NCBI RefSeq assembly: GCF_965216145.1
Contig: NZ_OZ244149.1
Location: 1,209,663 to 1,273,662, forward strand
DNA length: 64,000 bases
Direction of reading: 5' to 3'
Origin: Candidatus Palauibacter sp.
GTDB taxonomy: Bacteria > Gemmatimonadota > Gemmatimonadetes > Palauibacterales > Palauibacteraceae
Shown: piece after piece, positions 11,851-64,000 of the stretch
Numbering within the stretch: position 1 is the first letter of the stretch
Layout of the letters: each line of letters starts with the position of its first letter
Position numbers and translations under genes: made by a program
The notes under the pieces: generated by a model
Database searches by the model: none
What the model saw: the letters and a program-made list of their open reading frames with translations, nothing else
Told to the model about the DNA's origin: nothing

Positions 11851-12001
11851 GAGATACTCCAGTTTGAGCGGGTGGATCTTCGACTCCAGGCCTTGACACC
11901 TGTTGGGCGTGGGAAGCTGCAAGGTCTGCCCGCAGGATGGAACCATCCGCGACCCGACGCGGATCGGGCGCTCGCCGTCTCACCCGGAAACGCCCGGCGC
12001 C

Positions 12002-12041
12002 TTGATCTCTCGCGCGATCTAGCTAGATTTCTAGCTAGATC
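12002..12041 (+). promoter_or_regulatory. vapBC promoter with a 26-bp perfect palindromic operator
   Basis: GATCTAGCTAGA-TT-TCTAGCTAGATC at 12016-12041; TTGATC (12002-12007), 16 bp, TAGATT (12024-12029). Confidence 0.75.
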
Positions 12042-12060
12042 GTCAGGTTCCGGGGGAAAG

Positions 12061-12297
12061 ATGACCGTGATCGTGAACGTACACGAAGCCAAGACCCAAC
12101 TCTCCCGACTGCTTGCGCAGGTCGAGGCGGGGGAGGATGTCGTGATCGCGCGCCGGGGCGAACCGGTGGCGCAGCTCGTTGCCTGCAAGCCGCGCGGCCG
12201 GCGGCAGCCAGATGTCCTCAAGGGGAAGATCGTGATCCCCGACGACTTCTTCGATCCCCTGCCGGAGGAGGAACTGGTGGCCTGGGAGGGCAAATAG
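12061..12297 (+). CDS. vapB: Phd/YefM-family type II antitoxin
   Basis: VNVHEAKTQLSRLLAQVEAGEDVVIARRGEPVA motif; RBS and ATG at 12061 (the longer ORF from 11293 is an artefactual extension). Confidence 0.9.
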   Translation: MTVIVNVHEAKTQLSRLLAQVEAGEDVVIARRGEPVAQLVACKPRGRRQPDVLKGKIVIPDDFFDPLPEEELVAWEGK

Positions 12298-12299
12298 AG

Positions 12300-12686
12300 G
12301 TGCCGGTTCTGCTGGATACCCACGCGTTCCTGTGGTGGATCGCGGACAGTGGGCGTCTTTCCCGACGTGCACGACGCGTGATCGCCGACGAGACGAACGA
12401 GGTGGTGGTCAGCGCGGCGTCCGCTTGGGAAATCGCCACCAAGTACCGGATCGGGAGACTTCCGGACGGCGCAGCCGTGGCTCTCGATGTCGTCGGCCAC
12501 ATCGCCGGTCAGGGCTTTCGGGAGCTCTCGATCAGCGTCACCGATGCCGTACGCGCCGGCCGCCTCCCCGGACCGCATCGGGACCCGTTCGACCGAATGC
12601 TTGTCGCGCAGGCTCTCGGGGGTGGGCTCTCGCTCGTGTCAGCCGACGCGGTGTTCGACCGTTACGGCGTCGACCGGCTCTGGTAG
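12300..12686 (+). CDS. vapC: PIN-domain VapC toxin
   Basis: LLDTHAFLWW, VSAASAWEIATK and HRDPFDRMLVAQA motifs; GTG start 2 nt after the antitoxin stop. Confidence 0.9.
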   Translation: MPVLLDTHAFLWWIADSGRLSRRARRVIADETNEVVVSAASAWEIATKYRIGRLPDGAAVALDVVGHIAGQGFRELSISVTDAVRAGRLPGPHRDPFDRMLVAQALGGGLSLVSADAVFDRYGVDRLW

Positions 12687-13046
12687 TCATTCGCGCGGCT
12701 TGCCGGTGTCGCCCCGCCGGATCTCGAAGTCGCGCCGGTCGCGGTAGAAGAGCGCGCGGTTGAGGACGTAGTCGCCGCCTTCAAGATCGATGTCCGGGCA
12801 TTCCGTCATCGTCCAGTACTTGTGCTCGCCGAGAAACAGGTACTCTCGGGTCTGGTGGAAGAAACGGCAGGTGACGCCCTCGCCGCGCCCGATCCGCTCG
12901 CAGAAGGCGGCCAGGAGTTCCTGCTGCCCGTCTTTCTGGCTGACGACGTACTCGTGGGGCCAGGTTTCGCGGTAGGTCACGGCCTCGCGCCACGGGGCGC
13001 GAGCGACCAGCTCCATGATGTCCGGCTTCCGCCGTGCGTCTGCCAT
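12687..13046 (-). CDS. Conserved-looking hypothetical protein (W...WPHEY...YWTM...LNRA)
   Basis: 119 aa with an aromatic motif pattern that resembles a small uncharacterised family; strong coding bias. Confidence 0.7.
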   Translation of the reverse strand: MADARRKPDIMELVARAPWREAVTYRETWPHEYVVSQKDGQQELLAAFCERIGRGEGVTCRFFHQTREYLFLGEHKYWTMTECPDIDLEGGDYVLNRALFYRDRRDFEIRRGDTGKPRE

Positions 13047-13071
13047 CCCCGGCCTCCTCGGCGCGCGGCGC

Positions 13072-13497
13072 CTACCCGCCCACGCGGTCCAGGTCCAACT
13101 GGAGCGTGGCGTCGACCCCGAACCGAATCATCCCACGAATCTGGTCTGCCCCGAACAGGTTACCCGAGTAGCCGATGTTGGTAATCCGACCCGCAGCCCT
13201 CCACTCGAGGATCAGCGACACGTTCGGGTGCTCGTGCAGTCCGATAACCGTGCCGGAGATCATGTCCCCTTCCTCCTGCAGGGTGACCGTACCCGTGATC
13301 GCGCCGCGGTCGTTCGCGGACAGTCGGAAGTCGAAGCCGACCACCGAAGCCTCATCGACGACCTGCCCGACCCAGTGGCCGGTGATGTCCGGCGGGGCAG
13401 GCCCGGAAGTTCCGTCCCCGCAGCCGGCGAGCGCCACCGCGAGTACAATGACCGCACCTGCCGATCGCGTCTTCGGGGTCGCTCTCGGCTTTCTCAT
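13072..13497 (-). CDS. Putative lipoprotein, beta-barrel-like (paralogue 1)
   Basis: Lipobox LAGC, then P..P.ITGHWVG; GGAG RBS before the ATG at 13497. Confidence 0.7.
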   Translation of the reverse strand: MRKPRATPKTRSAGAVIVLAVALAGCGDGTSGPAPPDITGHWVGQVVDEASVVGFDFRLSANDRGAITGTVTLQEEGDMISGTVIGLHEHPNVSLILEWRAAGRITNIGYSGNLFGADQIRGMIRFGVDATLQLDLDRVGG

Positions 13498-13720
13498 CTC
13501 GTCTCCACTTCCGATCCGACATCGCCGTGAGACCCGGCGACGGTTTCGAGTAGCTGCCCAAGCAGGGATCGGTCGGCGGACACCTCTTGCGGGCCGACGC
13601 CGAGGAGGACCGCCGCCACGCCTTGATCGCCCAGGTGGAGCTTCGGCGTCTTGACCAGCCGACGCAACCGATTGCCGTGCCAAGGAGGCAATTCTCCAGC
13701 AGGAACCGGCGTTCAAGGTT
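13494..13720 (-). pseudogene. Relic of an AAA+ ATPase / DUF4143-type gene
   Basis: LERRFLLE/(frameshift)LPPWHGNRLRRLVKTPKLHLGDQGVAAVLLG...DRSLLGQLLETV matches the central signature of ATP-binding DUF4143 proteins; both ends of the gene are missing. Confidence 0.75.
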
Positions 13721-13784
13721 GAGCTGCGGCTGATTGCAAGTTCGCGCCGACAGCCGACTCGTGCGGGGGTTGTAAACGCTCGCC

Positions 13785-14297
13785 TCAGGGCCGATGGTTG
13801 GGCGGTATTGTGGCGCCGTCGGGGTCGACGTCGGAACCTCGTGCGATGCGCCTGAATTCCAGCGTGCCGATGTTCTGCACGATCGTGCCGCGTCGTATGA
13901 AACCGCTGATGTGATGTTCGGATCTGAAGCGACCCTGATAGTCCTCCGAGGAGGTTTCGTAGTCGAGCGTCAAGGATACTTCCGAGAAGGCATGCACGCC
14001 GCTCACGGTTCCCGGGGATATCGTTTCAATCGGGTGGGGGATGCGGCGGAAATCGGTTCGGCTGACCGTGCCCGAGACGTTGCCTTCCCCGTCTTCCTGC
14101 AGCCAGAGCTGCCAGGCCAGGCCCCCGTCGATAACCGTCACGTTGCCGAGCCACGTCCCTGTAAGGGGCATTTCGGCCGGATCCGTCGTGAAGCCGCAGT
14201 CGGCGATCGCCACCAACAGGACGATCGAGACTGCAAAGCGCGCGGCACATTCCCACGCCCCAGACGCCTCCGGTCGCAAGACGCTCGACCGCTGCAT
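13785..14297 (-). CDS. Putative lipoprotein/exported protein (paralogue 2)
   Basis: Hydrophobic segment ending in Cys, LTGTWLG; aligns by eye with 13072-13497. Confidence 0.65.
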   Translation of the reverse strand: MQRSSVLRPEASGAWECAARFAVSIVLLVAIADCGFTTDPAEMPLTGTWLGNVTVIDGGLAWQLWLQEDGEGNVSGTVSRTDFRRIPHPIETISPGTVSGVHAFSEVSLTLDYETSSEDYQGRFRSEHHISGFIRRGTIVQNIGTLEFRRIARGSDVDPDGATIPPNHRP

Positions 14298-14430
14298 TCA
14301 GGTCACGATGGCTGAGAAGAAATGTTGGTCGATGCTCTCCCTACGGTGAATCGATAACGGAATTGCCTCATGATTCCTTCAGGACCGGTGGCTTTCCGGT
14401 CACACTTGCAAACTCCTCCGCCTCCGGGAC

Positions 14431-15516
14431 CTATTCGTTCTCGGTGACCGGTATTGTCTCGACGCAAGGAACGAAGCGATCTCTTAGCCAGCCCTTCTTG
14501 CTGAGTAGACGGCAGGCAAGTTCAATCTGCCGCTCCGAAAAATCCCGCTTTCGCTCGTTCCAGGCGTATGCTTGGTCGACCACGTCATCGACGCTGCCGG
14601 CGTCTTCCTGCGTGACGACCCAGTGAACCGTGGACAGCAACTCCAGACCGAACGGTGACTCGAACCCGGCTACAAGGTCTGCGACGCGGTTGAACCGGGC
14701 TTGCGTATCCGTCGTGGTCGTCACAAGGGCCTGCGCGTCATCAATCGCGCCTGGAACCAGTCTCAGCCGCTTGTCGGGCCGGTCACCTCCGTCCGCGTAG
14801 CCCGACACCATGTGTCCCTCTATGGCATGGAGCACGTGGCGGAGATTCTCTGCGTAAGGCCCATAGTGCCCTTTAGTGAACCTGAGCTTCAGTGGCTCTC
14901 CTGCAGCCTGCATGAAGTACATCAGCTTGTGCGCCTCCTGGAGCGTGACGAACGGATCCAGCAGACCTCGCAGGTATCGGTCGAGCAGTCCGACGAGGGC
15001 GGCGCGTCCCGGTGTCATGCGAGGAACATCGCTTGAGCGGTTGGCTGTCGCGTCCTCTGGGCCGCCTCCCGGCTCGAAGATGGTTACCTCGATGTCGCCA
15101 TGATCCTTGAACGCCTCGAGAATGCGAGACCGTACCAGCGTCCAGTCGAGCCCACCCAAGCCACTCCCCAGCGGCGGGATTGCGACGGAGCGGATGTCTC
15201 GTTCGCGTATTTCCCGGACGAGAGATCGCAACCCGGAGTCGATGTCTTCGATGCGGCTCTTCCCACGCCAGTGACGCTTGCTGGGGAAGTTGATGATGTA
15301 TCGTGGCGGCACCCCCGAACCGGTCTCGAAGACGAAGACGCGCCCCGGCTTCATCTCCCCCCGCTTACACTCAGCGGCATAAGCCTTGAAGTTCGAGGGG
15401 AAGGCGCGCTTGAACTGGAGTGCGATGCCACGCCCCATCACACCGACGCAGTTGACGGTGTTGACCAGAGCCTCGGCTTCTTCCGCGAACATGTCGCCCG
15501 TCTTGAACCGGATCAC
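14431..15516 (-). CDS. darG: DarG antitoxin: macrodomain DNA ADP-ribosyl glycohydrolase with C-terminal domain
   Basis: GDMF..EAEALVNTVNCVGVMGRGIALQFK, INFPSKRHWRGKS, AIPPLGSGLGGLDW, KLMYFMQ.AGEPL.L.F.KG.YGPYA, GLELLSTVHW; GTG start at 15516 with GGAGG RBS. Confidence 0.9.
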   Translation of the reverse strand: MIRFKTGDMFAEEAEALVNTVNCVGVMGRGIALQFKRAFPSNFKAYAAECKRGEMKPGRVFVFETGSGVPPRYIINFPSKRHWRGKSRIEDIDSGLRSLVREIRERDIRSVAIPPLGSGLGGLDWTLVRSRILEAFKDHGDIEVTIFEPGGGPEDATANRSSDVPRMTPGRAALVGLLDRYLRGLLDPFVTLQEAHKLMYFMQAAGEPLKLRFTKGHYGPYAENLRHVLHAIEGHMVSGYADGGDRPDKRLRLVPGAIDDAQALVTTTTDTQARFNRVADLVAGFESPFGLELLSTVHWVVTQEDAGSVDDVVDQAYAWNERKRDFSERQIELACRLLSKKGWLRDRFVPCVETIPVTENE

Positions 15517-15536
15517 ATGTGCCTCCGCTCGTTGCT

Positions 15537-16057
15537 TCAATAGTACCAATCCGACTTCACTTCCACACGAGGCACGTGCTCAGCCCCCCTCAGCGCCTCG
15601 TTCGCTTGCCGCTGGATCGCCGTTGAATGAACGCCTATGCGGGTGATGAGAAACCATGGAAACGACGACTCCATGAGAAACTCGGCCTGTTTCCCTTCCT
15701 TCCTGTCCCGCCAATCACGGGCCTGCACAGCCGGCCAGTCGATTCGGTGAAGTTCTTCCAAGTCGGACCAATCCTCGAAGTAGGAAGAACCTGCGTTGGA
15801 CGCGGTAAACGCCCATCGTCGGTTGGCCCCTTCCGCCCAGGCGATCGCGCGATACAAGTCTGCTTCCAGGTGTACGTCAGAGAGGTGCGCGCACGTCTCG
15901 CCTTGATCTCTGCCATCCCGATCGACGTGCCAACCTTCGGTCGCTTCATCATCTCCGTGTCACAGGAGAGTCCTCCGTCACCTACGATCAAGATAAGACG
16001 GTCGACATGAACGATGTGATAGACCTTGGGCCGCGCAGGTACCGGGTGCAGAGGCAT
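15537..16057 (-). pseudogene. darT: darT (DNA ADP-ribosyltransferase toxin) with an internal deletion and frameshift
   Basis: The N-part (PKVYHIVHVDRL...GTSIGM..IK.RR) and C-part (VHLEADL...RWAFT.SNAG..YF...KQAEFL...DWYY) lie in different frames, joined at ~15875; the central conserved segment is absent. Confidence 0.85.
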
Positions 16058-16076: not shown

Positions 16077-16661
16077 TCAGTTGGACCAGGGGGGGACGAC
16101 GCCGTTCATGCGGGCGTAGGCGACGGACTGGCCGACGTGTTCGTTCATGTGCGAGACCAGCTGCAGGAGCACCGTCCAGCCCTGGACGCGGCGGCCGTAG
16201 AGTTCCGTCTCGCCGGCGAGGCTGGCCTCGCTGAGCGCGCCGACCTGCTCCATCACGTGGCGGACGGACATCTCGTGGATCTCGCGCACCTTGTCCTTGT
16301 CCCGGATCGACTCGATGTCCGCATAGTCGAACCCGTTGGGAGGCGCGATGCCCAGGTTCTGGTCGAGGTACATGAAGTTGTAGCGCGCGATGTGCATGTA
16401 GACCTCACCCACCTCCATCACGCCCTCGGCGGGCGCCCACGAGAACTTCTCCGTGGGCATGACGCGCGCGAGTTCGGAGATCTTGCGGCTGGAGCGCTGG
16501 AAGTGGTCGAGGATCTCGTCCCGGACCGCGATCGGATCCGTCCCGGGGGCGAGCGTCAGCTCATGGGACACGAGAGCGTCGTTGATGGGGATCTGCGCGA
16601 GCAGAGTCGCGGGCGCGAGGGCCGCGGCGACGACGAGAGCTGCGAGGGATTCCCGCCTCAT
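16077..16661 (-). CDS. Secreted DinB family protein
   Basis: Signal peptide; LA..MP.EKFSWAP.EGV..VGEV..HIA and H..EH.GQ..AYARMNGVVPPWS motifs. Confidence 0.85.
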   Translation of the reverse strand: MRRESLAALVVAAALAPATLLAQIPINDALVSHELTLAPGTDPIAVRDEILDHFQRSSRKISELARVMPTEKFSWAPAEGVMEVGEVYMHIARYNFMYLDQNLGIAPPNGFDYADIESIRDKDKVREIHEMSVRHVMEQVGALSEASLAGETELYGRRVQGWTVLLQLVSHMNEHVGQSVAYARMNGVVPPWSN

Positions 16662-24105: not shown

Positions 24106-24330
24106 ATGCAACGCTTCCGTTCACACTACCTGCCGCGTACGCGTCCGGGCCGGCTGCTGCTCGCCCTCTTCCTGGGCCTGTTCGCGTTCACTCAGCCGCC
24201 ACTCGTGTTCTGGATCGGTAACCGCGTCGAGCCGTTGCTGGGCGGGCTGCCATTTCTCTACGTCTATCTTCTCGTCTTCTACTGCCTCCTCATCGGGGTC
24301 CTCGTCTGGATGAAGAGGCGAGAACTCTGA
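24106..24330 (+). CDS. Small two-TM partner protein of a sodium:solute symporter (DUF3311/DUF485-like)
   Basis: 74 aa, two hydrophobic segments, N.VEP.LGGLPF motif; its stop overlaps the symporter start. Confidence 0.7.
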   Translation: MQRFRSHYLPRTRPGRLLLALFLGLFAFTQPPLVFWIGNRVEPLLGGLPFLYVYLLVFYCLLIGVLVWMKRREL

Positions 24331-25823
24331 TGGAACCCTGGGTCATCGCGACCGGACTCATCTTCGTCTATCTCCTGGCGACGATCGTGCTGGGGGCGGT
24401 CGCGAACCGGCGCATGTCGGTGGACCTCGAGGATTTCCTCCTGTATGGGCGCAAGGCCGGGTTCGTCGTCCTTTATCTCACGGTCGTCGCCACCTACCAC
24501 TCGGCGTTCGCCTTCCTCGGAGCCGGCGGGTTCTTCTACACGCACGGCATCGGATTCTGGGCCGCGGGCGCGTGGACGGTGCTCGTCGGCGCGATCACCT
24601 ACGTGCTCGGAAGCCGGATCTGGGCGCTCGGCAAGACGTTCGGCTATATCACGCCGGCCGATCTGCTGGCGGACTTCTACGAGTCCGATGCGGTTCGGGT
24701 CGTGGCGGCCATCGTGTCGGTGCTGTTCACGATCCTCTACATCCAGGTCCAGGCGGCGGGACTCGGCTACATCCTTTCGGTCGCGTCCGGCGACCGGATC
24801 TCGTTCGAACTCGGCACGCTGATCCTTCTCGTGGTCGCCGCGGGCTACCTCATCGCGGGCGGTCTGCGGGCTGTGTACTGGACCGACGTGATCCAGGGCG
24901 TGTGGATGTACGTCGCTGTGTGGGCCGGCGCGCTGGTGCTCGCGTTCAAGCTGTTCGGCGGGCCGATCCAGCTATGGAAGCGCGTGGCGGCGGAGCGCCC
25001 CGATCTCCTCACACTTCCGGGGCCCGAGGGGTTCTTCACGCCGGGGATGTGGTTCGGCCTGGTCGTTGTCCTCTCGTTCGGGATCGTCTTCCAGCCGCAC
25101 CTGTTCATCCGCTACTACACGGCGGTCTCGGCGCGCACGATCAAGTGGCTCGGCGCCACCACGCCCATCTACCTGATGACCTTGTACATCCCCGCTGCGC
25201 TGGTGGGTCTGGGCGGCGCGCTGGTGATGCCGGACATCGCGATTCCCGATCGGATCTTCCCCGAGATGCTGGTCGCCTATGCGCCGCCCTGGCTCACCGG
25301 CGCGATCCTCGCGGGCGCGACGGCCGCGGCGATGTCCACGCTCGACTCCATGCTGCACGCGAACATGACCGTGCTCACGCGCGACGTGTACCAGCGCTAC
25401 ATCCGCACGGACGCTGCTCAGAACCACTATATCCTCGTGGGTCGGCTCATCATCGTCGCCCTGCTCGCCGTTGGATATGTCCTCTCGGTGAACACGTTCG
25501 GCTTCCTCGTCACGCTCGTCTCACTCGCGGGTGCCGGCGCGCTGCAACTGATGCCGGCGGTACTCGGGGTCTGCTTCCCGGGACGGCGGCTTACGACGAG
25601 CGCGGGCGTGATCGCGGGCATCTCCGCGGGCCTGGCGACTCTCTGCGTGACGCTCATCGTCATACCGCATCCCCTCGGACTGCACGGCGGCGTGTGGGGA
25701 CTGGCGGTGAACTTCGTCGTGACCTGGGTCGTAAGCCGGCTCACGCCCGCACCGAGTGACCCCACGGTGTCGCGGATCCACGGCGCGATCGAGCGCTTCG
25801 TGTACGAGGGCGATCCCGCGTGA
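24330..25823 (+). CDS. Sodium:solute symporter (SSS) family transporter
   Basis: About 13 TM; EDFLL.GR, SAFAFLG, GGLRAVYWTDVIQG, AAAMSTLDS motifs. Confidence 0.9.
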   Translation: MEPWVIATGLIFVYLLATIVLGAVANRRMSVDLEDFLLYGRKAGFVVLYLTVVATYHSAFAFLGAGGFFYTHGIGFWAAGAWTVLVGAITYVLGSRIWALGKTFGYITPADLLADFYESDAVRVVAAIVSVLFTILYIQVQAAGLGYILSVASGDRISFELGTLILLVVAAGYLIAGGLRAVYWTDVIQGVWMYVAVWAGALVLAFKLFGGPIQLWKRVAAERPDLLTLPGPEGFFTPGMWFGLVVVLSFGIVFQPHLFIRYYTAVSARTIKWLGATTPIYLMTLYIPAALVGLGGALVMPDIAIPDRIFPEMLVAYAPPWLTGAILAGATAAAMSTLDSMLHANMTVLTRDVYQRYIRTDAAQNHYILVGRLIIVALLAVGYVLSVNTFGFLVTLVSLAGAGALQLMPAVLGVCFPGRRLTTSAGVIAGISAGLATLCVTLIVIPHPLGLHGGVWGLAVNFVVTWVVSRLTPAPSDPTVSRIHGAIERFVYEGDPA

Positions 25824-25844: not shown

Positions 25845-26297
25845 GTGGGCAAGCTCGTGGGAGGTCTCGCCCTCCTGTCGCTGGCGCTGTTCATGGTGCT
25901 CGGCTTCGTGCGCGCCGATGTCGACCCGTTGGCGCTCCGCACGATGGTGGCGCTCCTGATCGGGGCCGGGCTGCCGGCGGCGGGGGGCGTCTGGCTGCTG
26001 GCGCGCTACCGCGGGGTCGGGAGCCGGATCGAACACCGGCGCGAGCAACTGCGCCGCGACACGCTGGAGGCCGAGATCCTGAGGATGGCCGGGCGGCACG
26101 ACGGGCGGCTCACCGCGGTCGAAGTCGCGGGCGAACTGGCGGTGCCGACGACGACGGCGGAGGAGCTGCTGAACGAACTGATGGCGCGGGACATGGCCGA
26201 CATCGAGATCACCGACTCGGGTCTGCTCGTCTACACCTTCCACGACGTGCGACACCTGTCCGAGAAGGAATCGGCCCGAGGACTGCTGGAATCGTGA
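25845..26297 (+). CDS. Two-TM membrane protein with a C-terminal winged-helix-like domain
   Basis: Two TM helices, then EILRMA..HDGRLTAVEVA.EL......EELL..L...D...IE.TDSG..VY.F. Confidence 0.7.
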   Translation: MGKLVGGLALLSLALFMVLGFVRADVDPLALRTMVALLIGAGLPAAGGVWLLARYRGVGSRIEHRREQLRRDTLEAEILRMAGRHDGRLTAVEVAGELAVPTTTAEELLNELMARDMADIEITDSGLLVYTFHDVRHLSEKESARGLLES

Positions 26298-46226: not shown

Positions 46227-46317
46227 ATCGCGTCGATAATGGTTGTTCCTTCATCCGTTTGTGTTTCCAGGCCGGCGCCCCTGGGTGACCGGCCTTTTGC
46301 AACTGAAGAGGATTCGA

Positions 46318-47091
46318 ATGTCAGAACCGCTGCTGTCGATTCGCGGACTGCGAGCGAGGGTGGAGGGAGAGGATACGGAGATCCTCCGAGGCGTGGATCT
46401 CGATGTCGAGCGCGGCCAGGTGCATGCGCTGATGGGACCCAACGGCTCGGGAAAGAGCACGCTGGCCAAGGTCATCGCCGGACACCCGACCTACGAGGTG
46501 ACGGGCGGCGAGATTCTGTTCAGGGGCGAAGACGTCCTCGAACTGGAGCCCGACGAGCGGAGCCGGGAGGGAATCTTCCTCGCCTTCCAGTATCCCGCCG
46601 AGGTTCCGGGGGTCTCTATCGCCAACTTCCTGCGCACGGCGATGAGCGCGCGTCTGGCCGAGGGCGAGGAGATGGACGTGTTCGGCTTCCAGCGCACGCT
46701 CACCGAGAAGCTCGAGATGCTGAGGATGGATCCGGGCTTCGCCATCCGGTATGTGAACGATGGTTTCTCGGGCGGCGAGAAGAAGCGGAACGAGATCCTC
46801 CAGATGGCGGTTCTTCAGCCCGCGCTGGCGGTGCTGGACGAGACGGACAGCGGTCTCGATATCGATGCGCTCAAGATCGTCTCGAACGGCGTGAACCGGC
46901 TTTCCGAAGCGGATGAAGCGCTCGGAGTTCTCCTCATCACGCACTACAAGCGGATCCTGAACTACATCCAGCCCGACCGCGTCCACGTCATGATGGCGGG
47001 GCGCATCGCCGAGAGCGGCGGTGCCTCGCTGGCCGACAAGCTGGAGGCCGAGGGTTATGACTGGCTCTACCAGGCGGCGGCAGCCGTCTAA
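46318..47091 (+). CDS. sufC: Fe-S cluster assembly ATPase SufC
   Basis: [47 protein letters not shown]. Confidence 0.95.
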
Positions 47092-47162
47092 CAGCCAGCA
47101 GCCGAATTCCGCGGATTCTGCTCCGCGGCGATGACTCAGCAGTACCGGAAGGCGGAAGAACC

Positions 47163-48578
47163 ATGCCCCAGAACGAGACGATCACAGAGCTCGGGCTCGA
47201 CGAATACAAGTACGGTTTCATCACCGAGGACAAACCCGTCTTCAAGGCGGTCCCGGGGCTTTCCGAAGACATCGTCCGGCAGATCTCCGGTCACAAGGAC
47301 GAGCCGGATTGGATGCTCGAGTTCCGGCTCAAGGCGCTCGAGGTCTACCGGTCCAAGCCCATGCCGACGTGGGGCGGTGATCTCTCGAAGCTCGAGGATA
47401 CGCTCGACGAGATCTACTTCTATCTGAAGCCGCAGGAGCAGATGGAGCGGTCGTGGGACGACGTCCCGCAGGAGATCAAGGACACGTTCGAGAAGCTCGG
47501 GATTCCCGAGGCGGAGCGGAAGGCGCTCGCCGGGGTCGGAGCCCAGTACGAGTCCGAGATGGTCTATCATTCGCTCAAGGAACAGTGGGAGGAGCAGGGC
47601 GTGATCTTCGAGTCGATCGAGGACGGGCTCGCCAGGCATCCCGAACTGTTCAGGCAGTATTTCTCGACGATCGTCCCCACGCGCGACAACAAGTTCGCGG
47701 CGCTGAACTCGGCCGTGTGGTCGGGCGGGTCGTTCGTCTACATCCCGAAGGGGGTGAAGGTCGAGATCCCGCTCCAGGCCTACTTCCGCGTCAACGCCGA
47801 GAAGATGGGCCAGTTCGAGCGCACCCTCATCATCTGCGATGAGGGCGCCGAGGCGCACTACATCGAGGGCTGCACGGCGCCGGTCTACTCCACCGACTCG
47901 TTCCACTCGGGCGTGATCGAGATCGTGGTCAAGAAGGGGGCGCGGTTCCGCTACACGACGATCCAGAACTGGTCGAACAATATGTACAACCTCGTCACGC
48001 AGCGGGCGATGGTGCACGAGGACGCGAAGATGGAGTGGCTCGACGGCAACCTGGGCTCGAAGCTCACGATGAAGTACCCGTCGTGCTTCCTGGTCGGGGA
48101 GCGCGCGCACGGGGAGATCCTGTCGATCGCCTACGCCGGGGATGGCCAGCACCAGGACACGGGCGGGAAGGTGGTCCACGCGGCTCCGCATACGACGTCG
48201 CAGATCACGTCGAAGTCGATCTCGAGGGGGCTCGGGCGCTCGTCGTACCGCGGGCTGTGCAAAGTGTACGATGGCGCGGTGGGCGCGAAGTCCAACGTCG
48301 AGTGCGATGCGCTGCTGCTCGACGAGACGTCGCGGACGGACACCTACCCCTACATCGAGATCGACGAAAACACGGCTTCGATCGGCCACGAGGCGACCGT
48401 CTCCAAGGTAGGTGACGAGCAGCTGTTCTATCTGATGAGTCGCGGACTGGACCAGGCCGAGGCGATGGCGATGATCGTGCGAGGCTTCATCGAACCGGTG
48501 GCCAGGGAACTGCCGCTCGAGTATGCGATCGAACTGAACCGCCTGATCGAGATGGAGATGGAGGGGTCGGTCGGATAG
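47163..48578 (+). CDS. sufB: Fe-S cluster assembly protein SufB
   Basis: [58 protein letters not shown]. Confidence 0.95.
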
Positions 48579-48652
48579 ACGGCGGGCGCCGGGCGCGTTC
48601 CGCGTCACCTCTTTCCGGAAAACGGGATTAGAGACCAGGGGTCTCGGACGAT

Positions 48653-49984
48653 ATGAGCACTATGACAGCCGGGCTGGCGGAGTCGACGCTGGCCTCGGCG
48701 GATTTCAGGGCGTTCGCCGGCGGGCTTTCCGAGCCGGCGGGGATCGCGGAGGTGCGGGCCGCGGCGTGGGAGCGGTATGTCGCGTTGCCGTGGCCAACGA
48801 AGAAGTCGGAGGAATGGCGCTACACCGACCTGTCGAAGGTCGGCTTCGGCGCGCTCACGCCGACGCTCCCGACGATCGCGCCGGAGGAGCCGCTCTCCGC
48901 GGAGGTGCACGCCGTGCTGGCGCGGTCGGGGGATCGAGCGGGCATCGTCGTGCTCCGCGATGGGCAGGTCGCGCACCTCGAACTCGCGCCCGAGGTCGCC
49001 CGGGCGGGCGTGGTGCTGTGCTCGATTCGGGACGCCGCGGTCGAGCACGCCGGGCTGCTGCGGCGCACGATGTTCGATGCGCGGCCGGGACCGGCGGAGG
49101 AGAAGCTCTGGTCGCTGCATCTCGCGCTGCTGGGCGGTGGATACTTCCTCTATGTGCCGCGCGGTGTGCGGATGCCGGCGCCGGTCCATGCCTTCCACAT
49201 CGTCGAACGCGAGGGGACGATTTCTTCGACGCACTCGCTCGTGTACTCGGAGACGAGCGCGCGGGCCGCGGTGATCGACGAGTTCCTGTCCGACGATCTG
49301 GGCGCCGAGACCGTCTCGCTGCACGGGGCCACGGTCTCGGGCGAGGCCGACTCAGCCATCGAGTACGTAGCGCTGCAGCGCTACGGCCGCGGCGTGAAGC
49401 ACTTCTCGACGCAACACATCGTGGCGGGGCGCGACTCGCGGGTCGTGACGTTCAACGTCGCGTTGGGCGGCGACCTGTCCCGGGCGGACGTGACGAGCCG
49501 GCTGGCCGGGCCGGGGAGCAACAGCGAGATGCTGGCGCTCTGGTTCGGTGATGCGAACCAGCACTTCGATCACCACACGCTCCAGCATCACGCGGCGCCG
49601 CACGCGCGCAGCGACCTGTTGTTCAAGGGCGCCCTGACCGACAAGGCGTCGAGCGTGTTCCGGGGGCTGATCCGGGTGGACAAGGGCGCGCAGCTCACGG
49701 ACGCCTATCAGACCAATCGCAACCTGCTGCTCAGCGACGGGGCTCACGCGTCGGCTCTCCCCAACCTGGAGATCGAGGCCGATGACGTGCGTTGCTCGCA
49801 CGGCGCGACGATCGGACAGGTCGACGACGGACAGCTCTTCTATCTGATGACCCGCGGCCTGACGCGGCGCCAGGCGGAGCGACTGCTGGTGTTCGGGTTC
49901 TTCGACGAGGTGCTGGGGCGGCTTCCGATGGAGGGTGTCCGGGCCCGCGTCCGCGAAGCGATCGAGGAGAAGATCGGACTATGA
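48653..49984 (+). CDS. sufD: Fe-S cluster assembly protein SufD
   Basis: EEWRYTDL, S.LLFKG.L, F.GLI.V, PNLEI.ADDV.CSHGATIG, FYL.TRGL. Confidence 0.92.
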   Translation: MSTMTAGLAESTLASADFRAFAGGLSEPAGIAEVRAAAWERYVALPWPTKKSEEWRYTDLSKVGFGALTPTLPTIAPEEPLSAEVHAVLARSGDRAGIVVLRDGQVAHLELAPEVARAGVVLCSIRDAAVEHAGLLRRTMFDARPGPAEEKLWSLHLALLGGGYFLYVPRGVRMPAPVHAFHIVEREGTISSTHSLVYSETSARAAVIDEFLSDDLGAETVSLHGATVSGEADSAIEYVALQRYGRGVKHFSTQHIVAGRDSRVVTFNVALGGDLSRADVTSRLAGPGSNSEMLALWFGDANQHFDHHTLQHHAAPHARSDLLFKGALTDKASSVFRGLIRVDKGAQLTDAYQTNRNLLLSDGAHASALPNLEIEADDVRCSHGATIGQVDDGQLFYLMTRGLTRRQAERLLVFGFFDEVLGRLPMEGVRARVREAIEEKIGL

Positions 49985-50292
49985 GCCGGTTCGTTGCCGT
50001 AGCCAGCCTGGACGAAGTTCCGGAGAACGATACGAAGGGCGTGATGGTCGACGATCTGGCGATCGTCCTCATCAACAGCGGGGGCGACATCCACGCCCTC
50101 GAGGATTGCTGCTCGCACGAGGAGTTCCCCCTCTCCGCGGGGGAGGTCGCCGCCGGCGAGATCACGTGTACGCTGCACGGAGCGCGTTTCGACATCGCGA
50201 CAGGGGCGGTGCGCGCGCTGCCCGCGGTCATGCCGGTTCGGCGCTTCGACGTGCGACTCGACGGCGACGAGATCCAGGTCGACGTCGGCTGA
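49981..50292 (+). CDS. Rieske-type ferredoxin (non-heme iron oxygenase ferredoxin subunit-like)
   Basis: CSH...C.LHG.RF Rieske ligands; ATGA overlap with the sufD stop. Confidence 0.9.
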   Translation: MSRFVAVASLDEVPENDTKGVMVDDLAIVLINSGGDIHALEDCCSHEEFPLSAGEVAAGEITCTLHGARFDIATGAVRALPAVMPVRRFDVRLDGDEIQVDVG

Positions 50293-50320
50293 ACGGAACG
50301 GTCGACACGATCGGGGCTCG

Positions 50321-51661
50321 ATGATGGACACGAACCACCCGGCAGGCGTGCTCGCTCCGGACGGTCCCCCCCTGGCGGCCGACCGCGATTCGGCGGCGGC
50401 CGGCGGCGACGGGACGGAGACGGGTCCGACGCCTGCGTGGGACGTCGCGGCGATCCGGGCCCGGTTCCCCATCCTGTCGCGGGAAGTCAACGGCCATCCG
50501 CTCGTCTATCTCGACAGCGCGGCGAGTTCGCAGCAGCCGCTCCGCGTGCAGGACCGGGTGGAGCGCTATCTGCGCATGCAGCACGCCAACGTGCACCGCG
50601 GCGTGCACCAGCTGAGCGCCGAGGCGACCGAGGCGTACGAGGACGCGCGCCTCGCCGTGGCGGCGCATGCGGGCACGCCCGACCCATCGGAGATCGTCTT
50701 CACCCGCGGCACGACGGAGGCGGTGAACCTCGTCGCCTCGAGCTGGGGCGGCGCCTTCGTCGGCCCGGACGATGACATCGTGCTCACGAAGATGGAGCAC
50801 CACTCGAACCTCGTCCCCTGGCAGCTGCTCGCCGCCCGTACGGGGTGCGGACTCCACTTTGTCGATGTCACGGCCGAAGGCAGGCTCGACCTCGACGACC
50901 TCGACCGTCTTCTGAAGCGGCGGCCGCGCCTCGTCGCGTTCACCCACGTCTCCAACAGCCTCGGGACGATCAACCCCGTGCGGGAGATCGTGGCCCGGGC
51001 CCACGCGGCGGGCGCGCTCGCCCTCGTCGACGGCGCGCAGGCGGCCCCCCATCTCCTGACCGACGTGACCCGGCTCGGGTGTGACTTCTACGCCTTCAGC
51101 GGGCACAAGATGTGCGGACCCACGGGCGTCGGAGCGCTGTGGGCGAGGCGTGAACTGCTCGAGGCGATGCCTCCGTATCAGGGGGGCGGCGAGATGATCT
51201 CGGAGGTGACGCTGGAGGGATCTTCGTGGGCGAAGCCGCCGGCCAAATTCGAGGCCGGGACGCCGAACATCTCGGGCGTCGTGGGCTTCGGCGAGGCCGC
51301 CCGCTTCCTTGCGGACCTCGGGCGGGAAGCGCTCGCGTCTCACGAGGACGCCCTGACGCGATACGCGCTGGGACGGCTCGGCGCGATCGAAGGGCTCCGG
51401 CTGTACGGGCCCCGGCGAGGCCGCACGTCGGTGTTCTCCTTCACCTACGGAGACGTGCACCCGCACGACCTCTCCACGATCCTCGACCAGCGCGGCATCG
51501 CCATCCGGGCGGGACATCACTGCAACCAGCCGCTCATGGACCACTACGGGATCAGCGGCACCGCGCGGGCGAGCTTCTATCTCTACAACTCGGCGGACGA
51601 GATCGACGCGCTGTGCGACGGGCTCGCGATGGCCGCCGAAGTCTTTCACGGCATATCCTGA
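50321..51661 (+). CDS. sufS: SufS (group II) cysteine desulfurase
   Basis: YLDSAASSQ, FSGHKMCGPTG (PLP Lys), FEAGTP, IRAGHHCNQP (catalytic Cys). Confidence 0.95.
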   Translation: MMDTNHPAGVLAPDGPPLAADRDSAAAGGDGTETGPTPAWDVAAIRARFPILSREVNGHPLVYLDSAASSQQPLRVQDRVERYLRMQHANVHRGVHQLSAEATEAYEDARLAVAAHAGTPDPSEIVFTRGTTEAVNLVASSWGGAFVGPDDDIVLTKMEHHSNLVPWQLLAARTGCGLHFVDVTAEGRLDLDDLDRLLKRRPRLVAFTHVSNSLGTINPVREIVARAHAAGALALVDGAQAAPHLLTDVTRLGCDFYAFSGHKMCGPTGVGALWARRELLEAMPPYQGGGEMISEVTLEGSSWAKPPAKFEAGTPNISGVVGFGEAARFLADLGREALASHEDALTRYALGRLGAIEGLRLYGPRRGRTSVFSFTYGDVHPHDLSTILDQRGIAIRAGHHCNQPLMDHYGISGTARASFYLYNSADEIDALCDGLAMAAEVFHGIS

Positions 51662-52198: not shown

Positions 52199-53173
52199 GT
52201 GAACCCGGACGGCGTCTCCGCCCCCTCGCCCAACGAGGGATCCCGCCCGTCATTCGGACGTGTGCTGCGGATCGCCGGCGGCGTCTATCACGTTGACGAC
52301 GCCAATTCGGTCATTCAGGCATCGCTGCGCGGCCGCGTCAAACGGACGGATTCGCGAATCGTATCCGTCGGGGACCTCGTCGAACTCGAGCGGGTCGGGG
52401 ACGAGATGCGGATCGTGCGCCTCCGACCGCGGCGCAGCGCACTCGCCCGCCACGGCGTCTCGAAGCGGCGCGAGCAGGTGATCGTGGCGAACGTCGACCA
52501 GGTCGCCGTCGTCGTCTCCGTCACGGCACCCGACCCCGATTTCCTCATGGTCGACCGGCTGCTCGCGTTGGCGGCGCTGAGCGAGATCGAGGCAGTTCTC
52601 GTGGTGAACAAGACGGACCTCGCGCCGCTCGGCGGGAGCGGCCCCGCCCGGGGCTCCGGCGGGGGAGACGCGGTCGGGAGCGGCCTCCGGCAGTACGCCG
52701 CGCTCGGTGTCGAAACGATGTGGACCAGCGCCGAATCGGCCGAGGGGCTGGAGGCGCTCGCCGCCCGGCTCGAGGGCCGCGTCACGGTGCTGAGCGGCCA
52801 GTCCGGCGTCGGCAAGTCGAGCCTCCTGAACGCGCTCGTCCCGGGCCTCGACCTGCGGGTGGGCCAGATCAGCGAGCGGCGGGGGCGCGGGCGGCACACC
52901 ACGGTCGCATCGGCGCTCTATCGCTATCCGCCGGGGGGCTACGTGGCCGATACGCCGGGCCTGCAGTACCTGGCGCTGTGGGACCTCGACCCCGCGCGGC
53001 TGCAGCGCGGCTTCGTGGAGATCGCCGCGGTCGGCGAGGGCTGCCGTTTCGCCGACTGCCGCCACCGCGTGGAGCCGGACTGCGCGGTCATCGCCGCCGT
53101 GGAGCGCGGGACCATCGCGCGGCGGCGGCGGGAGAGCTACCTGCGGCTCCTGGACGAAGCCGAGAAGACCTGA
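52199..53173 (+). CDS. rsgA: Ribosome small subunit-dependent GTPase A
   Basis: ANVDQ, NK.DL, GQSGVGKSSLLN, GRHTT, DTPG, C.F.DC.H..EP.C zinc finger. Start codon is approximate. Confidence 0.92.
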   Translation: MNPDGVSAPSPNEGSRPSFGRVLRIAGGVYHVDDANSVIQASLRGRVKRTDSRIVSVGDLVELERVGDEMRIVRLRPRRSALARHGVSKRREQVIVANVDQVAVVVSVTAPDPDFLMVDRLLALAALSEIEAVLVVNKTDLAPLGGSGPARGSGGGDAVGSGLRQYAALGVETMWTSAESAEGLEALAARLEGRVTVLSGQSGVGKSSLLNALVPGLDLRVGQISERRGRGRHTTVASALYRYPPGGYVADTPGLQYLALWDLDPARLQRGFVEIAAVGEGCRFADCRHRVEPDCAVIAAVERGTIARRRRESYLRLLDEAEKT

Positions 53174-53778
53174 TGGGCGAGACGGGCGCGCCGTGGAGCG
53201 AGGGCCGCGTCGCGCGCCGGCTGGCCGGCACGAGCCCCGCGCTCGTGCCGGAGGGGGCGGCGGACCGCCACGCCGCCGTGACCCTCGTCGTCCGACCCGG
53301 CCCCCGGGATCTCGAGGTGCTCTTCGTCCGGCGCGCCGAAGTCCCGGGTGACCCCTGGTCCGGCCACATGGCGCTCCCCGGCGGGCACCGCGACGCCGCC
53401 GATGCGGACATCCTGGCGACGGCGCGCCGCGAGACGCGCGAGGAGGTGGGGCTCGATCCCCCCTGCCGCGCCTACCTGGGGCGCCTCGACGACCTGCGCC
53501 CCGCGACCCGCCGGATCCCGTCGATCCTCATCTCGCCCTTCGTCGCGTGGCACGATGGTGAAACCCGGGTCGCGACGAACGACGAGGTGCAGTATCACGT
53601 CTGGGCACCGCTCGGCGCGCTGCGCGATCCCGCCCTGCGCTCGGAGGTCCGCTTCGCCGACGGTGGCCGCGAGCGCATCTTTCCCTCCATCTTGTTCGAG
53701 GGCGACACGATCTGGGGGCTCACCCATCGCGTCGTCATGAACTTCCTCGACCTTGTCACGGAGAAAGCCCTTCGATGA
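53173..53778 (+). CDS. Nudix hydrolase, CoA-pyrophosphatase-like
   Basis: DPWSGHMALPGG, TA.RET.EEVGL Nudix box, IWGLT. Confidence 0.88.
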   Translation: MGETGAPWSEGRVARRLAGTSPALVPEGAADRHAAVTLVVRPGPRDLEVLFVRRAEVPGDPWSGHMALPGGHRDAADADILATARRETREEVGLDPPCRAYLGRLDDLRPATRRIPSILISPFVAWHDGETRVATNDEVQYHVWAPLGALRDPALRSEVRFADGGRERIFPSILFEGDTIWGLTHRVVMNFLDLVTEKALR

Positions 53779-54242
53779 GCGATGTCCTCTACCGTTCCCA
53801 CGTGAAGATCGTCCGGGAGAAGGGTCCCTACCGCACGGCGCACATCCCGGCCACGGAAGCACCTGTTGAGTTCGGCGTCCACTCCGCGATCGCGGAGCAC
53901 TACGGCGTCACCTCCGACCGCGATATCGCGACGACGCTCGACTACGTGATCGCCGCCACGGGCGGCTGACTGACCGGAACCTTCGGGGGCGCGCTGGAAG
54001 CGCGTGGGGTCAGGGCCGATGAGGGACGACTCGTGGCGGAGGTCAAGGGCGAGGTCGAGACGGAGGATGGCGTCCTCGTCATCCGGAGGATTCACGCGCG
54101 GTATCGACTGCGGGCGGACGAGGCGCACGCCGCCGCGATCCGGCGCGCGTTCGAGGCGCATCCGCCGAAGTGCCCGGTCTACCGGACGCTCTCCGGGTGC
54201 ATCGACATCACGACGGAGCTGGACCTCCTCCCGCTCGAATGA
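53775..54242 (+). CDS. OsmC-like selenoprotein (Sec at codon 65)
   Basis: ORFs 53775-53969 and 54033-54242 share a frame and are separated by a single TGA (53967-53969): ...TTLDYVIAATGG-U-LTGTFGGALEARG...KCPVYRTL... 155 aa; ATGA coupling to the Nudix gene; SECIS-like hairpin directly after the TGA. Confidence 0.85.
53970..54013 (+). promoter_or_regulatory. Bacterial SECIS-like stem-loop
   Basis: CTGACC...GGTCAG basal stem; GCGCGC-UGGAA-GCGCGU apical hairpin whose G-containing loop starts 26 nt after the UGA. Confidence 0.75.
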
Positions 54243-54252
54243 GCGGCGGGGC

Positions 54253-55626
54253 TCAGTTGAGCCCGTCGGTGAGGCGGCCGTACAGGTCGGCGAGCGCCGC
54301 GATGCCGTTGCGGTAGACGCCGAGATCGATCCACTCGTCCGGCGCGTGCATGTTGCAGCCGGGGAGTGCGAAGCCGATGAGCAGCACCGGCGCCTCGAAC
54401 GTCTCTTCGAACGCCTGGACGATCGGGATCGAGCCCCCTTCGCGCACGAACGCGGGCGGGGCCCCGAAGCCCGACTCAAGCGCGGCGGACGCGGCGCCGA
54501 AGATCGGGTGCCCCGTGTCGGCGACCCAGGGCGCGCCGCCGTGCGAGCGCTTGATCTCCACCGTCACACCCTCGGGGGCGAGCTCGTGGACCCGGGCCTC
54601 GAAAGCTTCAATGACCTGCGCCGGATCCTGATCCGGGACGAGCCGCATCGACACCTTCGCCATCGCCCGCGACGGCAGCACGGTCTTTGAGCCCTCGCCG
54701 GTGAAACCGCTGAGCATCCCGTTCACATCCAGCGTCGGGCGATACCACAGCCGCTCGAGGGCCGAGAAGCCGGCCTCGCCGCCCAAGGCCGGCGCTCCGA
54801 CCCCCGCGCGCAGCGTCTCGTCGTCCATGGGGAGACGCTCAAGGTCGGCGCGTTCGCGCTCGGTGATGGGCCGGACGGCGTCATAGTACCCCGGCACGGT
54901 CGCGCGCCCCCGGTCGTCCCGGAGGCCGGCGAGGATCGCGGCCAGGGCGTTCGCCGGGTTCACGACGGCGCCGCCGTAGCTCCCGGAGTGCAGGTCCGAC
55001 GCGGGCCCGAAGACGTTGATCTCCGTATAGACGATCCCCCGCAGGCCCGTCGTGATGCACGGCAGATCGGGCGAGAACATCCCGGTGTCGCTGATCAGGA
55101 CCGCGTCGCAGGCGAGGCGTTCGGCGTTCTCCGAGAGGAAGGCCGCGAGGTGGCGGCTCCCGACCTCCTCTTCCCCCTCGATCACGAGCTTGAGATTCAC
55201 GGGTACCCCGGCCCCGGTCGCGAGGCGGGCCTCGAGCGCCTTGATATGCATGTGGACCTGTCCCTTGTCGTCCACGGCGCCGCGGGCGTAAAGGCGGCCA
55301 TCCCGGACGGTCGGCTCGAACGGGGGACTCGACCACAGTTCGTCCGGTTCGGATGGCTGCACGTCGTAGTGCCCGTAGACGAGCACGGTCGGTGCGTCGG
55401 GGGCGTGGATCCGCTCGGCGACGACAATCGGGTGCCCCCCGGTCTCGATGACCTCGGCGCCGGGGACGCCCGCCGCCGCGAGGTGTTCGGCGACCCACCC
55501 CGCGCACGCCCGGACATCGCCGGCGCGCTCCGGGTCGGTGCTGATGCTGGGGATCCGGAGGAAGGTCTCGAGTTCCTCGCGGAAGCGGGGGAATTCTCGG
55601 TCGATGTAGGCGCAGAAGTCGGACAT
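54253..55626 (-). CDS. M20 family dipeptidase (ArgE/DapE/CNDP-like)
   Basis: VYGHYDVQP, ARGAVDDKG, EGEEE.GS, DLHSG.YGG, GGSIP, HAPDE. Confidence 0.9.
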   Translation of the reverse strand: MSDFCAYIDREFPRFREELETFLRIPSISTDPERAGDVRACAGWVAEHLAAAGVPGAEVIETGGHPIVVAERIHAPDAPTVLVYGHYDVQPSEPDELWSSPPFEPTVRDGRLYARGAVDDKGQVHMHIKALEARLATGAGVPVNLKLVIEGEEEVGSRHLAAFLSENAERLACDAVLISDTGMFSPDLPCITTGLRGIVYTEINVFGPASDLHSGSYGGAVVNPANALAAILAGLRDDRGRATVPGYYDAVRPITERERADLERLPMDDETLRAGVGAPALGGEAGFSALERLWYRPTLDVNGMLSGFTGEGSKTVLPSRAMAKVSMRLVPDQDPAQVIEAFEARVHELAPEGVTVEIKRSHGGAPWVADTGHPIFGAASAALESGFGAPPAFVREGGSIPIVQAFEETFEAPVLLIGFALPGCNMHAPDEWIDLGVYRNGIAALADLYGRLTDGLN

Positions 55627-63561: not shown

Positions 63562-64000
63562 CAGTCCGTGGTAAAAGTCGGGATGTTCCGCGCCGGCATT
63601 GATGGTTAGATTGTGGCCGGGACAGGAGTGGCCAGTCAGTCGGAGGTGGGCGATGGCGATGGGGCGGCGGAGGGGCGGGCGGCAGAAGGCGCTGTTCGTG
63701 GCTGCGGCGGGGATCCGGGCTCCGGGGCACCCGTTCTACCGGGCGCTGGACGGGATGCTGGCGGAGGCGGGCTTCGACGGGTTGTGCGAGGAGACGTGCG
63801 CGGCGTACTACGCGGAGCGGCTGGGCCGTCCGAGCGTGGCGCCGGGGGTGTACTTCCGGATGCTTGTGGTGGGGTATCTGGAGGGGATCGGATCTGAGCG
63901 GGGGATCGCGTGGCGGTGCGCGGAGTCTCTGTCGCTGCGGGAGTTCCTTGGCTACGAGCTGGACGAGAACCCGCCGGACCACTCGACGGTGTCGCGGACG
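63562..64000 (+). mobile_element. Left end of an IS1182/IS5-like insertion sequence (truncated by the window)
   Basis: CTAG (63558-63561) followed by CAGTCCGTGGTAAAAGTC as the probable left end; transposase ORF follows. Confidence 0.7.
63653..64000 (+). CDS. IS1182-like transposase, N-terminal part
   Basis: GGAGG RBS; HPFYR.LD..L, Y....GRPS.APG.YFRML.VGYLEGI.SER.IAWRC..S.SLR.FLG.......PDHST.SR. Confidence 0.9.
   Translation, partial: MAMGRRRGGRQKALFVAAAGIRAPGHPFYRALDGMLAEAGFDGLCEETCAAYYAERLGRPSVAPGVYFRMLVVGYLEGIGSERGIAWRCAESLSLREFLGYELDENPPDHSTVSRT

Follow-up and report, generated by a model that had tools for sequence, protein, structure and literature searches.

The window analysed here is a stretch of 64,000 nucleotides (nt) from Candidatus Palauibacter sp. 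(Gemmatimonadota), and the gene in question is an OsmC-like gene on its forward strand that is crossed by an in-frame TGA. It is very probably one gene for a 155-residue protein of the OsmC/Ohr fold, in which codon 65, UGA, is decoded as selenocysteine (Sec); the probability of this reading is put at about 0.88. Sec as the inserted residue can be inferred from the pairing of UGA with cysteine among homologues and from a downstream element that resembles a selenocysteine insertion sequence (SECIS). As is expected of a bacterial selenoprotein gene, the UGA aligns with Cys, it is conserved and has coding sequence on both sides, and a stem-loop follows it. The balance of the evidence leans, with less assurance, towards a second and independent Sec lineage in the OsmC fold, absent from the published inventories examined and one of the more broadly distributed selenoproteins in aerobic phyla of soils and the sea (Gemmatimonadota, Acidobacteriota, Actinomycetota, Chloroflexota, and Methylomirabilota). 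The closest members of such a lineage would have predominantly Sec over Cys, it would have stayed hidden as fragments of 64 and 90 amino acids (aa) or as 'Trp' proteins, and its SECIS hairpin would dictate the peptide [A/V]LEAR.

The frame at 53775-54242 comprises 155 codons and a terminal TGA stop, and in direct translation a TGA is the sole internal stop. The whole translation reads MSDVLY...TTLDYVIAATGG-stop-LTGTFGGALEARG...HPPKCPVYRTLSGCIDITTELDLLPLE-stop, and around the internal TGA it reads ...TTLDYVIAATGG-stop-LTGTFGGALEARG...KCPVYRTLSG.... A program-made list of the open reading frames (ORFs) of the window shows this frame as two pieces of 64 aa and 69 aa. The sequence-only reading, made from the letters of the window before the present analysis, had joined the two into one 155-aa frame with a single TGA; retranslation agrees with it exactly, and the observation that the two short ORFs are one gene with an internal TGA is confirmed. 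At codon positions 1/2/3 the frame has GC fractions of 0.64/0.47/0.88 on the 5' side of the TGA and, with no change of frame, 0.76/0.49/0.87 on its 3' side, so that the coding signal crosses the junction; the codon bias that had been said to continue past the TGA is seen in these third-position values (GC3). The pattern is the coding signature of the host genome, which has 69% GC. A long ORF on the opposite strand, 53595-54479, is taken for an artefact of the kind common in high-GC DNA, since the GC signal at third positions (0.87-0.88) belongs to the forward-strand frame. With Cys put at the stop, the protein matches the Pfam OsmC domain PF02566 at residues 54-148 (E=7e-12; score 46 bits, cut-off 27.5), and the domain therefore spans the TGA. 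The ATG at 53775 shares the letters ATGA (53775-53778) with the TGA stop of the NUDIX gene upstream (ORF 53170-53778), which suggests translational coupling in an operon. A promoter and terminator scan found nothing relevant to the gene.

The TGA is conserved in every related locus of the homologue survey. This survey covered one genome per species with two peptide patterns and found at least 575 relatives. The 80 best of these were retained; with three NCBI/ENA loci they make 83 related loci, or 84 sequences including the window. TGA stands at the homologous codon in 83/83 related loci, and in 84/84 sequences when the window is counted, well beyond what chance would give. One of the two scan patterns ended in [CW] and was unable to match TGA, so the survey carries no bias towards it. 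The carriers come from at least six phyla: Gemmatimonadota (Palauibacter, Longimicrobiales, and Gemmatimonadales), Acidobacteriota (Bryobacterales, Solibacteraceae, and Pyrinomonadales), Actinomycetota (Gaiellaceae and Thermoleophilia), Chloroflexota (Dehalococcoidia and Anaerolineae), and further Methylomirabilota/Rokubacteria and Latescibacterota. Compared with Palauibacter orthologues, the ratio of non-synonymous to synonymous substitution rates (dN/dS) lies at 0.07-0.11 in codons 1-64 and at 0.11-0.16 in codons 66-155, and purifying selection is strong on both sides of the TGA. Logan contigs from metagenomes (four runs, four different studies) have no variant at the three positions of the codon. 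A metatranscriptome contig of 317 nt, which belongs to a closely related strain, runs unbroken over 53803-54119 and keeps the UGA, at a low depth and with DNA carry-over possible. TGA also closes 24 of the 38 other well-supported ORFs in the window, and the organism therefore does not use genetic code 4 or 25. The in-frame TGA is neither a sequencing error nor the mark of a pseudogene. The Bryobacterales metagenome-assembled genome (MAG) MFD05580.bin.2.3 has two paralogues, L053 (CAVTJS010000005.1) and L069 (CAVTJS010000001.1), both with the in-frame TGA.

The homologues that lack the TGA mostly have cysteine in its place. The sequence-only reading had proposed a search for TGC or TGT at this codon; beside the TGA of all 83 related loci, Cys (TGC/TGT) is found at the DNA level in loci L084-L086. 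The Cys-form proteins P0005, P0061, and P0072 likewise have TGC or TGT in their DNA. The 120 homologues listed include 60 with 'W', 35 with Cys, and 21 that are C-terminal fragments, besides one Gly, one Arg, and one Leu at the Sec position; Sec-type entries number 81 in this list versus 35 Cys forms. Sec/Cys pairs at redox sites are the classical signature of selenoproteins (PMC1088965, PMC13188914).

The Sec-type proteins are consistently mis-annotated. P0002, the sole 'W' form examined as DNA (L088, JGI contig Ga0672931_0395948, positions 665-667), has TGA at the codon, and its Trp therefore comes from the gene caller of the source, which perhaps applied a TGA=Trp code to such 'W' forms. 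The Trp read at the Sec position in P0002, P0003, P0009, and others is an artefact of annotation that recurs systematically on short metagenome contigs. The closest database proteins are 90-aa entries named 'OsmC family protein' of Candidatus Palauibacter (Gemmatimonadota), and they start exactly after the TGA. Three NCBI/ENA genomes, complete or nearly so, list the gene as an ORF of 62-64 aa with one of 90-91 aa, again an 'OsmC family protein', directly after it. The expectation that standard pipelines would call two fragments is thus borne out by the NCBI calls, and the JGI proteins have 'W' at the TGA. In a representative library at 50% identity, many entries end at profile position 67 or begin at 69, which places the split of the fragments exactly at the Sec codon.

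The remaining residues at this position are rare. The Leu form P0090 (L087, 1702-1704) has TTA at the DNA level, one mutation away from TGA, and P0050 and P0079 are also rare forms at the Sec position; the Gly and Arg forms are known from the protein level alone. The Leu, Gly, and Arg forms may be inactivated copies or errors of low-coverage long reads (the L087 contig is labelled 5x).

The hairpin that follows the UGA lies within the coding region, begins 19 nt past the UGA, has a 6-bp GC stem, and encodes G-A-L-E-A-R. Across 80 distinct aligned sequences, 98.5% of the stem cells are paired. Pair 29/39 is C-G in 55 of the 80 sequences and U-A in 25, with 0 mismatches, and the switch from C-G to U-A couples a non-synonymous change from Ala GCG to Val GTG with a synonymous change from GCG to GCA. 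None of 500 shuffles reaches the observed pairing and compensation, shifted registers collapse, and RNAalifold predicts the same helix independently. The stem codons are nearly invariant (GGC in 81/83, GCG in 52/55, and CTG in 81/84), and the synonymous entropy of the 5' arm is 0.16-0.31 bits versus 1.3-1.85 bits in the flanking four-fold codons. This low synonymous variation is also found in lower-GC genomes that have T- or A-ending codons alongside. The hairpin-encoded peptide [A/V]LEAR occurs in 60/60 Sec ('W') forms versus 9/82 Cys forms. The hairpin persists in L084, which has become a Cys form recently, and in the Leu form L087; the divergent Cys forms L085 and L086 are without it. These alignments argue that the hairpin is under selection at the RNA level and that it is a likely bacterial SECIS element.

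Some loci have a variant of this structure. In the Dehalococcoidia loci (GCGCC-CUUGA-GGCGC), and in L079 and L065, a hairpin is possible by eye with a shifted register or another loop; minimum-free-energy folds recover a variant hairpin for L064 and L065 and not for L079. An alternative helix that pairs columns 17-23 with 31-37 is 93% paired, has no covariation, and is equalled by 295/500 shuffles, so that the hairpin at columns 26-31/37-42 is preferred. A lower stem CUGACC/GGUCAG in the window is, by eye, not kept in other loci.

When compared to known bacterial SECIS elements (Escherichia coli fdhF and the bSECISearch consensus), the hairpin is similar in being a stem-loop inside the ORF soon after the UGA, with G residues in a small apical loop. 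The distance from UGA to loop is 25 nt, inside the consensus range of about 16-37 nt for bacterial SECIS elements, and the fdhF element has a shorter spacing. It differs in its very GC-rich stem of 6-7 bp and in having no obvious bulged U, and binding by SelB is putative.

The metagenome depth in runs X1, X5, X6, and X10 is several-fold higher over 53961-54004, the TGA and the hairpin, alone. Short contigs of other co-occurring organisms match this segment, with about 4 mismatches in the 44 nt. Across species, no other part of the gene is as conserved in nucleotide sequence as the segment with the Sec codon and the hairpin.

The protein belongs to the OsmC/Ohr superfamily by its PF02566 score, by the OsmC alpha/beta fold, and by two residues at catalytic positions. 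The fold is taken from an AlphaFold2 (AF2) model of the Cys homologue P0005, which is 57% identical to the window protein and has a predicted local distance difference test score (pLDDT) of 96.7. Its top PDB matches in Foldseek are all OsmC or Ohr: 2onf (template modelling score, TM, 0.86), 1nye, 1qwi, 1lql, and 1usp, with TM 0.62-0.86 across these neighbours and sequence identities of 11-17%. By sequence, the only PDB match of the window protein is the Thermus thermophilus OsmC (1ukk), and the family profile matches only Ta0195 (2onf; E=0.007); no solved or characterised member of the window family was found in these PDB searches.

The catalytic residues are located by alignment to 1ukk. The sequence-only reading had placed the TGA at the catalytic Cys and a second Cys in a CPV motif, and both placements hold, since U65 falls on the first catalytic Cys, that of AGCFSM, and C133 of the KCPVYRTLSG stretch falls on the Cys of CPVSRAL. 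Alignment A1 has no variation at C133, P134, and V135, and A3 has none at Cys133. The family motif at the Sec site is GG-U-LTGTFGG[A/V]LEAR, with the second Cys in CPVYR. The window family has an extra N-terminal region of about 50 residues with the conserved motif FGVHxxIAEHY; H36, H42, and Y43 of this motif, and also D56, E95, and R105, are invariant in alignment A1. The proposal that Sec replaces the peroxidatic Cys is supported by the UGA/Cys pairing, the 1ukk alignment, and the covarying hairpin, and is probably correct on these comparisons. OsmC (E. coli, and T. thermophilus 1ukk) and Ohr share the fold and have equivalent catalytic chalcogen residues, on the central helix and in the C-P-V motif. 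They differ from the window family in their low identity (11-17%) and in having Cys where Sec is proposed here. The shared chemistry would likely be the reduction of hydroperoxides by way of a Se-S or S-S bond formed within the molecule. The function is most likely that of a selenol-based hydroperoxide reductase or a related redox enzyme with a Sec65-Cys133 selenenylsulfide intermediate, as judged from the family.

The proposed mechanism follows from these analogies. The hairpin, at +19 to +36 nt past the UGA (GCGCGC-UGGAA-GCGCGU), would act as a bacterial SECIS element and bring SelB, loaded with GTP and Sec-tRNA(Sec), to a ribosome that has paused at UGA-C, where Sec would be inserted in place of termination. 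Sec65 would stand at the N-terminal end of the long helix, the site of the peroxidatic Cys in OsmC and Ohr. It would attack the hydroperoxide and form a selenenic acid, Cys133 of CPVYR would resolve this into a selenenylsulfide, and a thiol partner of the lipoyl or thioredoxin type would reduce the latter. SelB binding to the hairpin, the peroxidase role, and the suggested reductant can be inferred from the sequence elements and known enzymes described above.

Sec-containing OsmC-like proteins were reported in 2005 from the Sargasso Sea (COG1765, motif UxxT; Zhang, Fomenko and Gladyshev; PMC1088965), and a 2026 inventory of prokaryotic selenoproteins still lists the Sargasso type as the sole OsmC-like family (PMC13188914). 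The sequence-only reading had referred to such reported proteins; they do exist, but the window family is not one of them. The reference Sargasso sequence AACY01145085, from the supplement of PMC1088965, scores 157 bits with the NCBIfam model NF041052 'OsmC-related (seleno)protein', which has a cut-off of 95, whereas the window protein scores 12.8 and its homologues 16-21. BLASTP of AACY01145085 against the window protein gives 11/35 identities (E=0.026), a weak local match of 35 residues. The low NF041052 score and this short match make the window family distinct from the Sargasso OsmC-like family. With TIGR03562, a subfamily of OsmC peroxiredoxins, the window protein reaches 21.5 bits and falls below the cut-off of 85.8; no NCBIfam model covers the window family.

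The two families have several features in common. The Sargasso/GOS OsmC-like family (COG1765, YhfA type) has the same PF02566 superfamily fold and the same Sec/Cys pair logic in a thiol-redox protein, with Sec where the long helix begins, in place of the first catalytic Cys, and a coding-region hairpin after the UGA. In contrast, AACY01145085 has GIGF-U-LLTQL ... GCFAENL with UxxT in 137 aa, while the window family has U-L-T-G-T and CPVYR and the extra N-terminal region. By sequence comparison, the window gene thus appears to be a separate and new Sec-containing branch of the OsmC superfamily. The family appears to be uncatalogued; it may be among the unvalidated candidates of a groundwater MAG survey, as that survey is cited in PMC13188914. 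Literature searches on Sec use in Gemmatimonadota, Palauibacter, or Solibacter found nothing useful, and no mention of selenium was found in a Palauibacterales ecogenomics paper.

Several points weigh against decoding of the UGA as Sec. The 64-kb window has no selA, selB, selD, or tRNA-Sec gene: the Pfam annotation of about 45 window ORFs gives no SelA, SelB, or SelD domain, and the tRNA scan of the window found no tRNA genes and hence no tRNA-Sec. The hairpin has no counterpart in Rfam at E<=10, where the site and its surroundings gave only chance snoRNA and miRNA hits, and no match is found in the whole window at gathering thresholds. The folding energies of individual sequences do not stand out from those of shuffled GC-rich sequence (z-scores of -0.2 to -2.0, uninformative at 70% GC). 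The 25 sequences with the U-A pair are mostly of one clade, the Longimicrobiales, so the compensation is possibly a single evolutionary event, and the hairpin overlaps a conserved peptide, so its conservation is partly at the protein level. The nearest solved structure is detectable by sequence at just E about 0.01-0.08.

The best of the alternatives, itself improbable, is that the UGA is recoded to a residue other than Sec. This may be Cys, inserted by a tRNA-Sec-like tRNA(Cys) with a SelB-like factor, as has been proposed for some uncultured bacteria, or Trp, inserted by near-cognate read-through at a leaky UGA-C. A conserved UGA with a downstream hairpin is expected alike under any SelB-like recoding system, and UGA followed by C is a weak terminator. 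However, Trp in place of the catalytic Cys that homologues have would inactivate the enzyme, a UGA and a hairpin kept merely for Cys would bring no gain over TGC, and Cys-recoding systems are rare next to canonical Sec decoding.

A pseudogene, whether an OsmC gene killed by a premature stop or a product of sequencing error, is effectively refuted by the conservation data. The treatment of the gene as fragments by annotation pipelines agrees with it, and the rare Leu (TTA, DNA level) and Gly and Arg (protein level) relatives could be decay products. Against this stand the identical TGA in all 84 sequences of at least six phyla, the purifying selection on both of its sides with no variants in four independent studies, and the hairpin with its apparent RNA-level selection. 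Two small genes, whose products (64 aa for the N-terminal part, 90 aa for the C-terminal OsmC part) would come together once translated, are hardly credible: both pieces are predicted by gene callers and the window codon after the TGA is CTG, taken as a start by NCBI, but this codon is CTC, CTT, or CTA in 44/84 loci and cannot initiate, so that the C-terminal half is not independently translatable there, no Shine-Dalgarno (SD)-like sequence precedes the codon, the Cys homologues are single polypeptides, and the split, seen in library fragments that break at profile positions 67 and 69, would fall exactly on the catalytic residue of the OsmC domain.

Decoding of codon 65 as Sec has consequences for annotation and for the view of these lineages. 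The mechanism is not new, and its kind is well known, with Sec at a redox Cys position and a SECIS in the coding region; the family is widespread and systematically mis-annotated. The gene is split in two or translated with Trp in at least 80 species-level genomes and in many metagenome proteins, and a family model with a Sec-aware rule in the style of NF041052 would repair this. The family would imply active Sec decoding in Palauibacterales, Longimicrobiales, Bryobacterales, Gaiellaceae, and Methylomirabilota, which are rarely discussed as selenoprotein users, and it points to a selenium-dependent peroxide or redox defence in them. It would be a natural example of an RNA element that constrains an overlapping protein sequence, and the matched Sec and Cys orthologues offer a way to ask what Sec gives to an OsmC-type active site.

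The OsmC-like gene is the final gene of a co-directional SUF-rsgA-NUDIX block and is convergent with an M20 peptidase gene. The order in the window is sufC-sufB-sufD-sufS-...-rsgA-NUDIX-OsmC-like gene, and the gene order around it is kept in the Palauibacter loci L001 and L002. When the ORFs flanking the gene in 80 loci were clustered, none proved to be a universal neighbour and only clade-specific ones were found; the contexts vary among phyla. The neighbours of the Cys forms are redox genes, with Thioredoxin_3 in L085, and AhpC-TSA/Redoxin and DsbD_TM in L086.

Table. Positions of the OsmC-like gene, its elements, and other features in the 64-kb window (CDS, coding sequence).
Feature	Position	Strand	Basis or description
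OsmC-like selenoprotein CDS (proposed)	53775..54242	+	Single frame; Pfam OsmC; GC3; dN/dS
Translation start region	53760..53778	+	SD-like GGAG 53760-53763, ATG 53775
In-frame UGA, proposed Sec codon 65 (peroxidatic position)	53967..53969	+	Followed by C
SECIS-like hairpin within CDS	53989..54005	+	5' arm GCGCGC 53989-53994; loop UGGAA 53995-53999; 3' arm GCGCGU 54000-54005
TGC codon of Cys133 in C-P-V motif, proposed resolving cysteine	54171..54173	+	Invariance; alignment with T. thermophilus OsmC
SUF block upstream	46243-51661	+	ABC ATPase (SufC-like), two SufB/D-type proteins, class-V aminotransferase (SufS-like); then rsgA, NUDIX
DinB-family genes flanking low-GC stretch	11344-11946; 16077-16661	both -	Annotation
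PIN-domain protein in low-GC stretch	12300-12686	+	
Macro-domain protein in low-GC stretch	14431-15549	-	
ORF running off window end, transposase domain DUF772 (PF05598)	63599-64000	+	Pfam match

The only other same-frame TGA junction between high-GC3 ORFs in the window is at 25821-25823, between the forward-strand ORFs 24330-25823 and 25845-26297. The upstream ORF is a sodium:solute symporter (Pfam SSF), and the downstream ORF begins with a GTG of its own and matches no Pfam family; this TGA looks like an ordinary stop before the next gene in that frame. The stretch at about 12000-16000 has a GC content of 0.61-0.65 versus about 0.69 elsewhere and, besides the genes given in the table, holds several ORFs without a Pfam match. 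Possible readings of this stretch are an acquired island and a toxin-antitoxin or defence region. The transposase-domain ORF at the edge of the window suggests an insertion sequence (IS) element.

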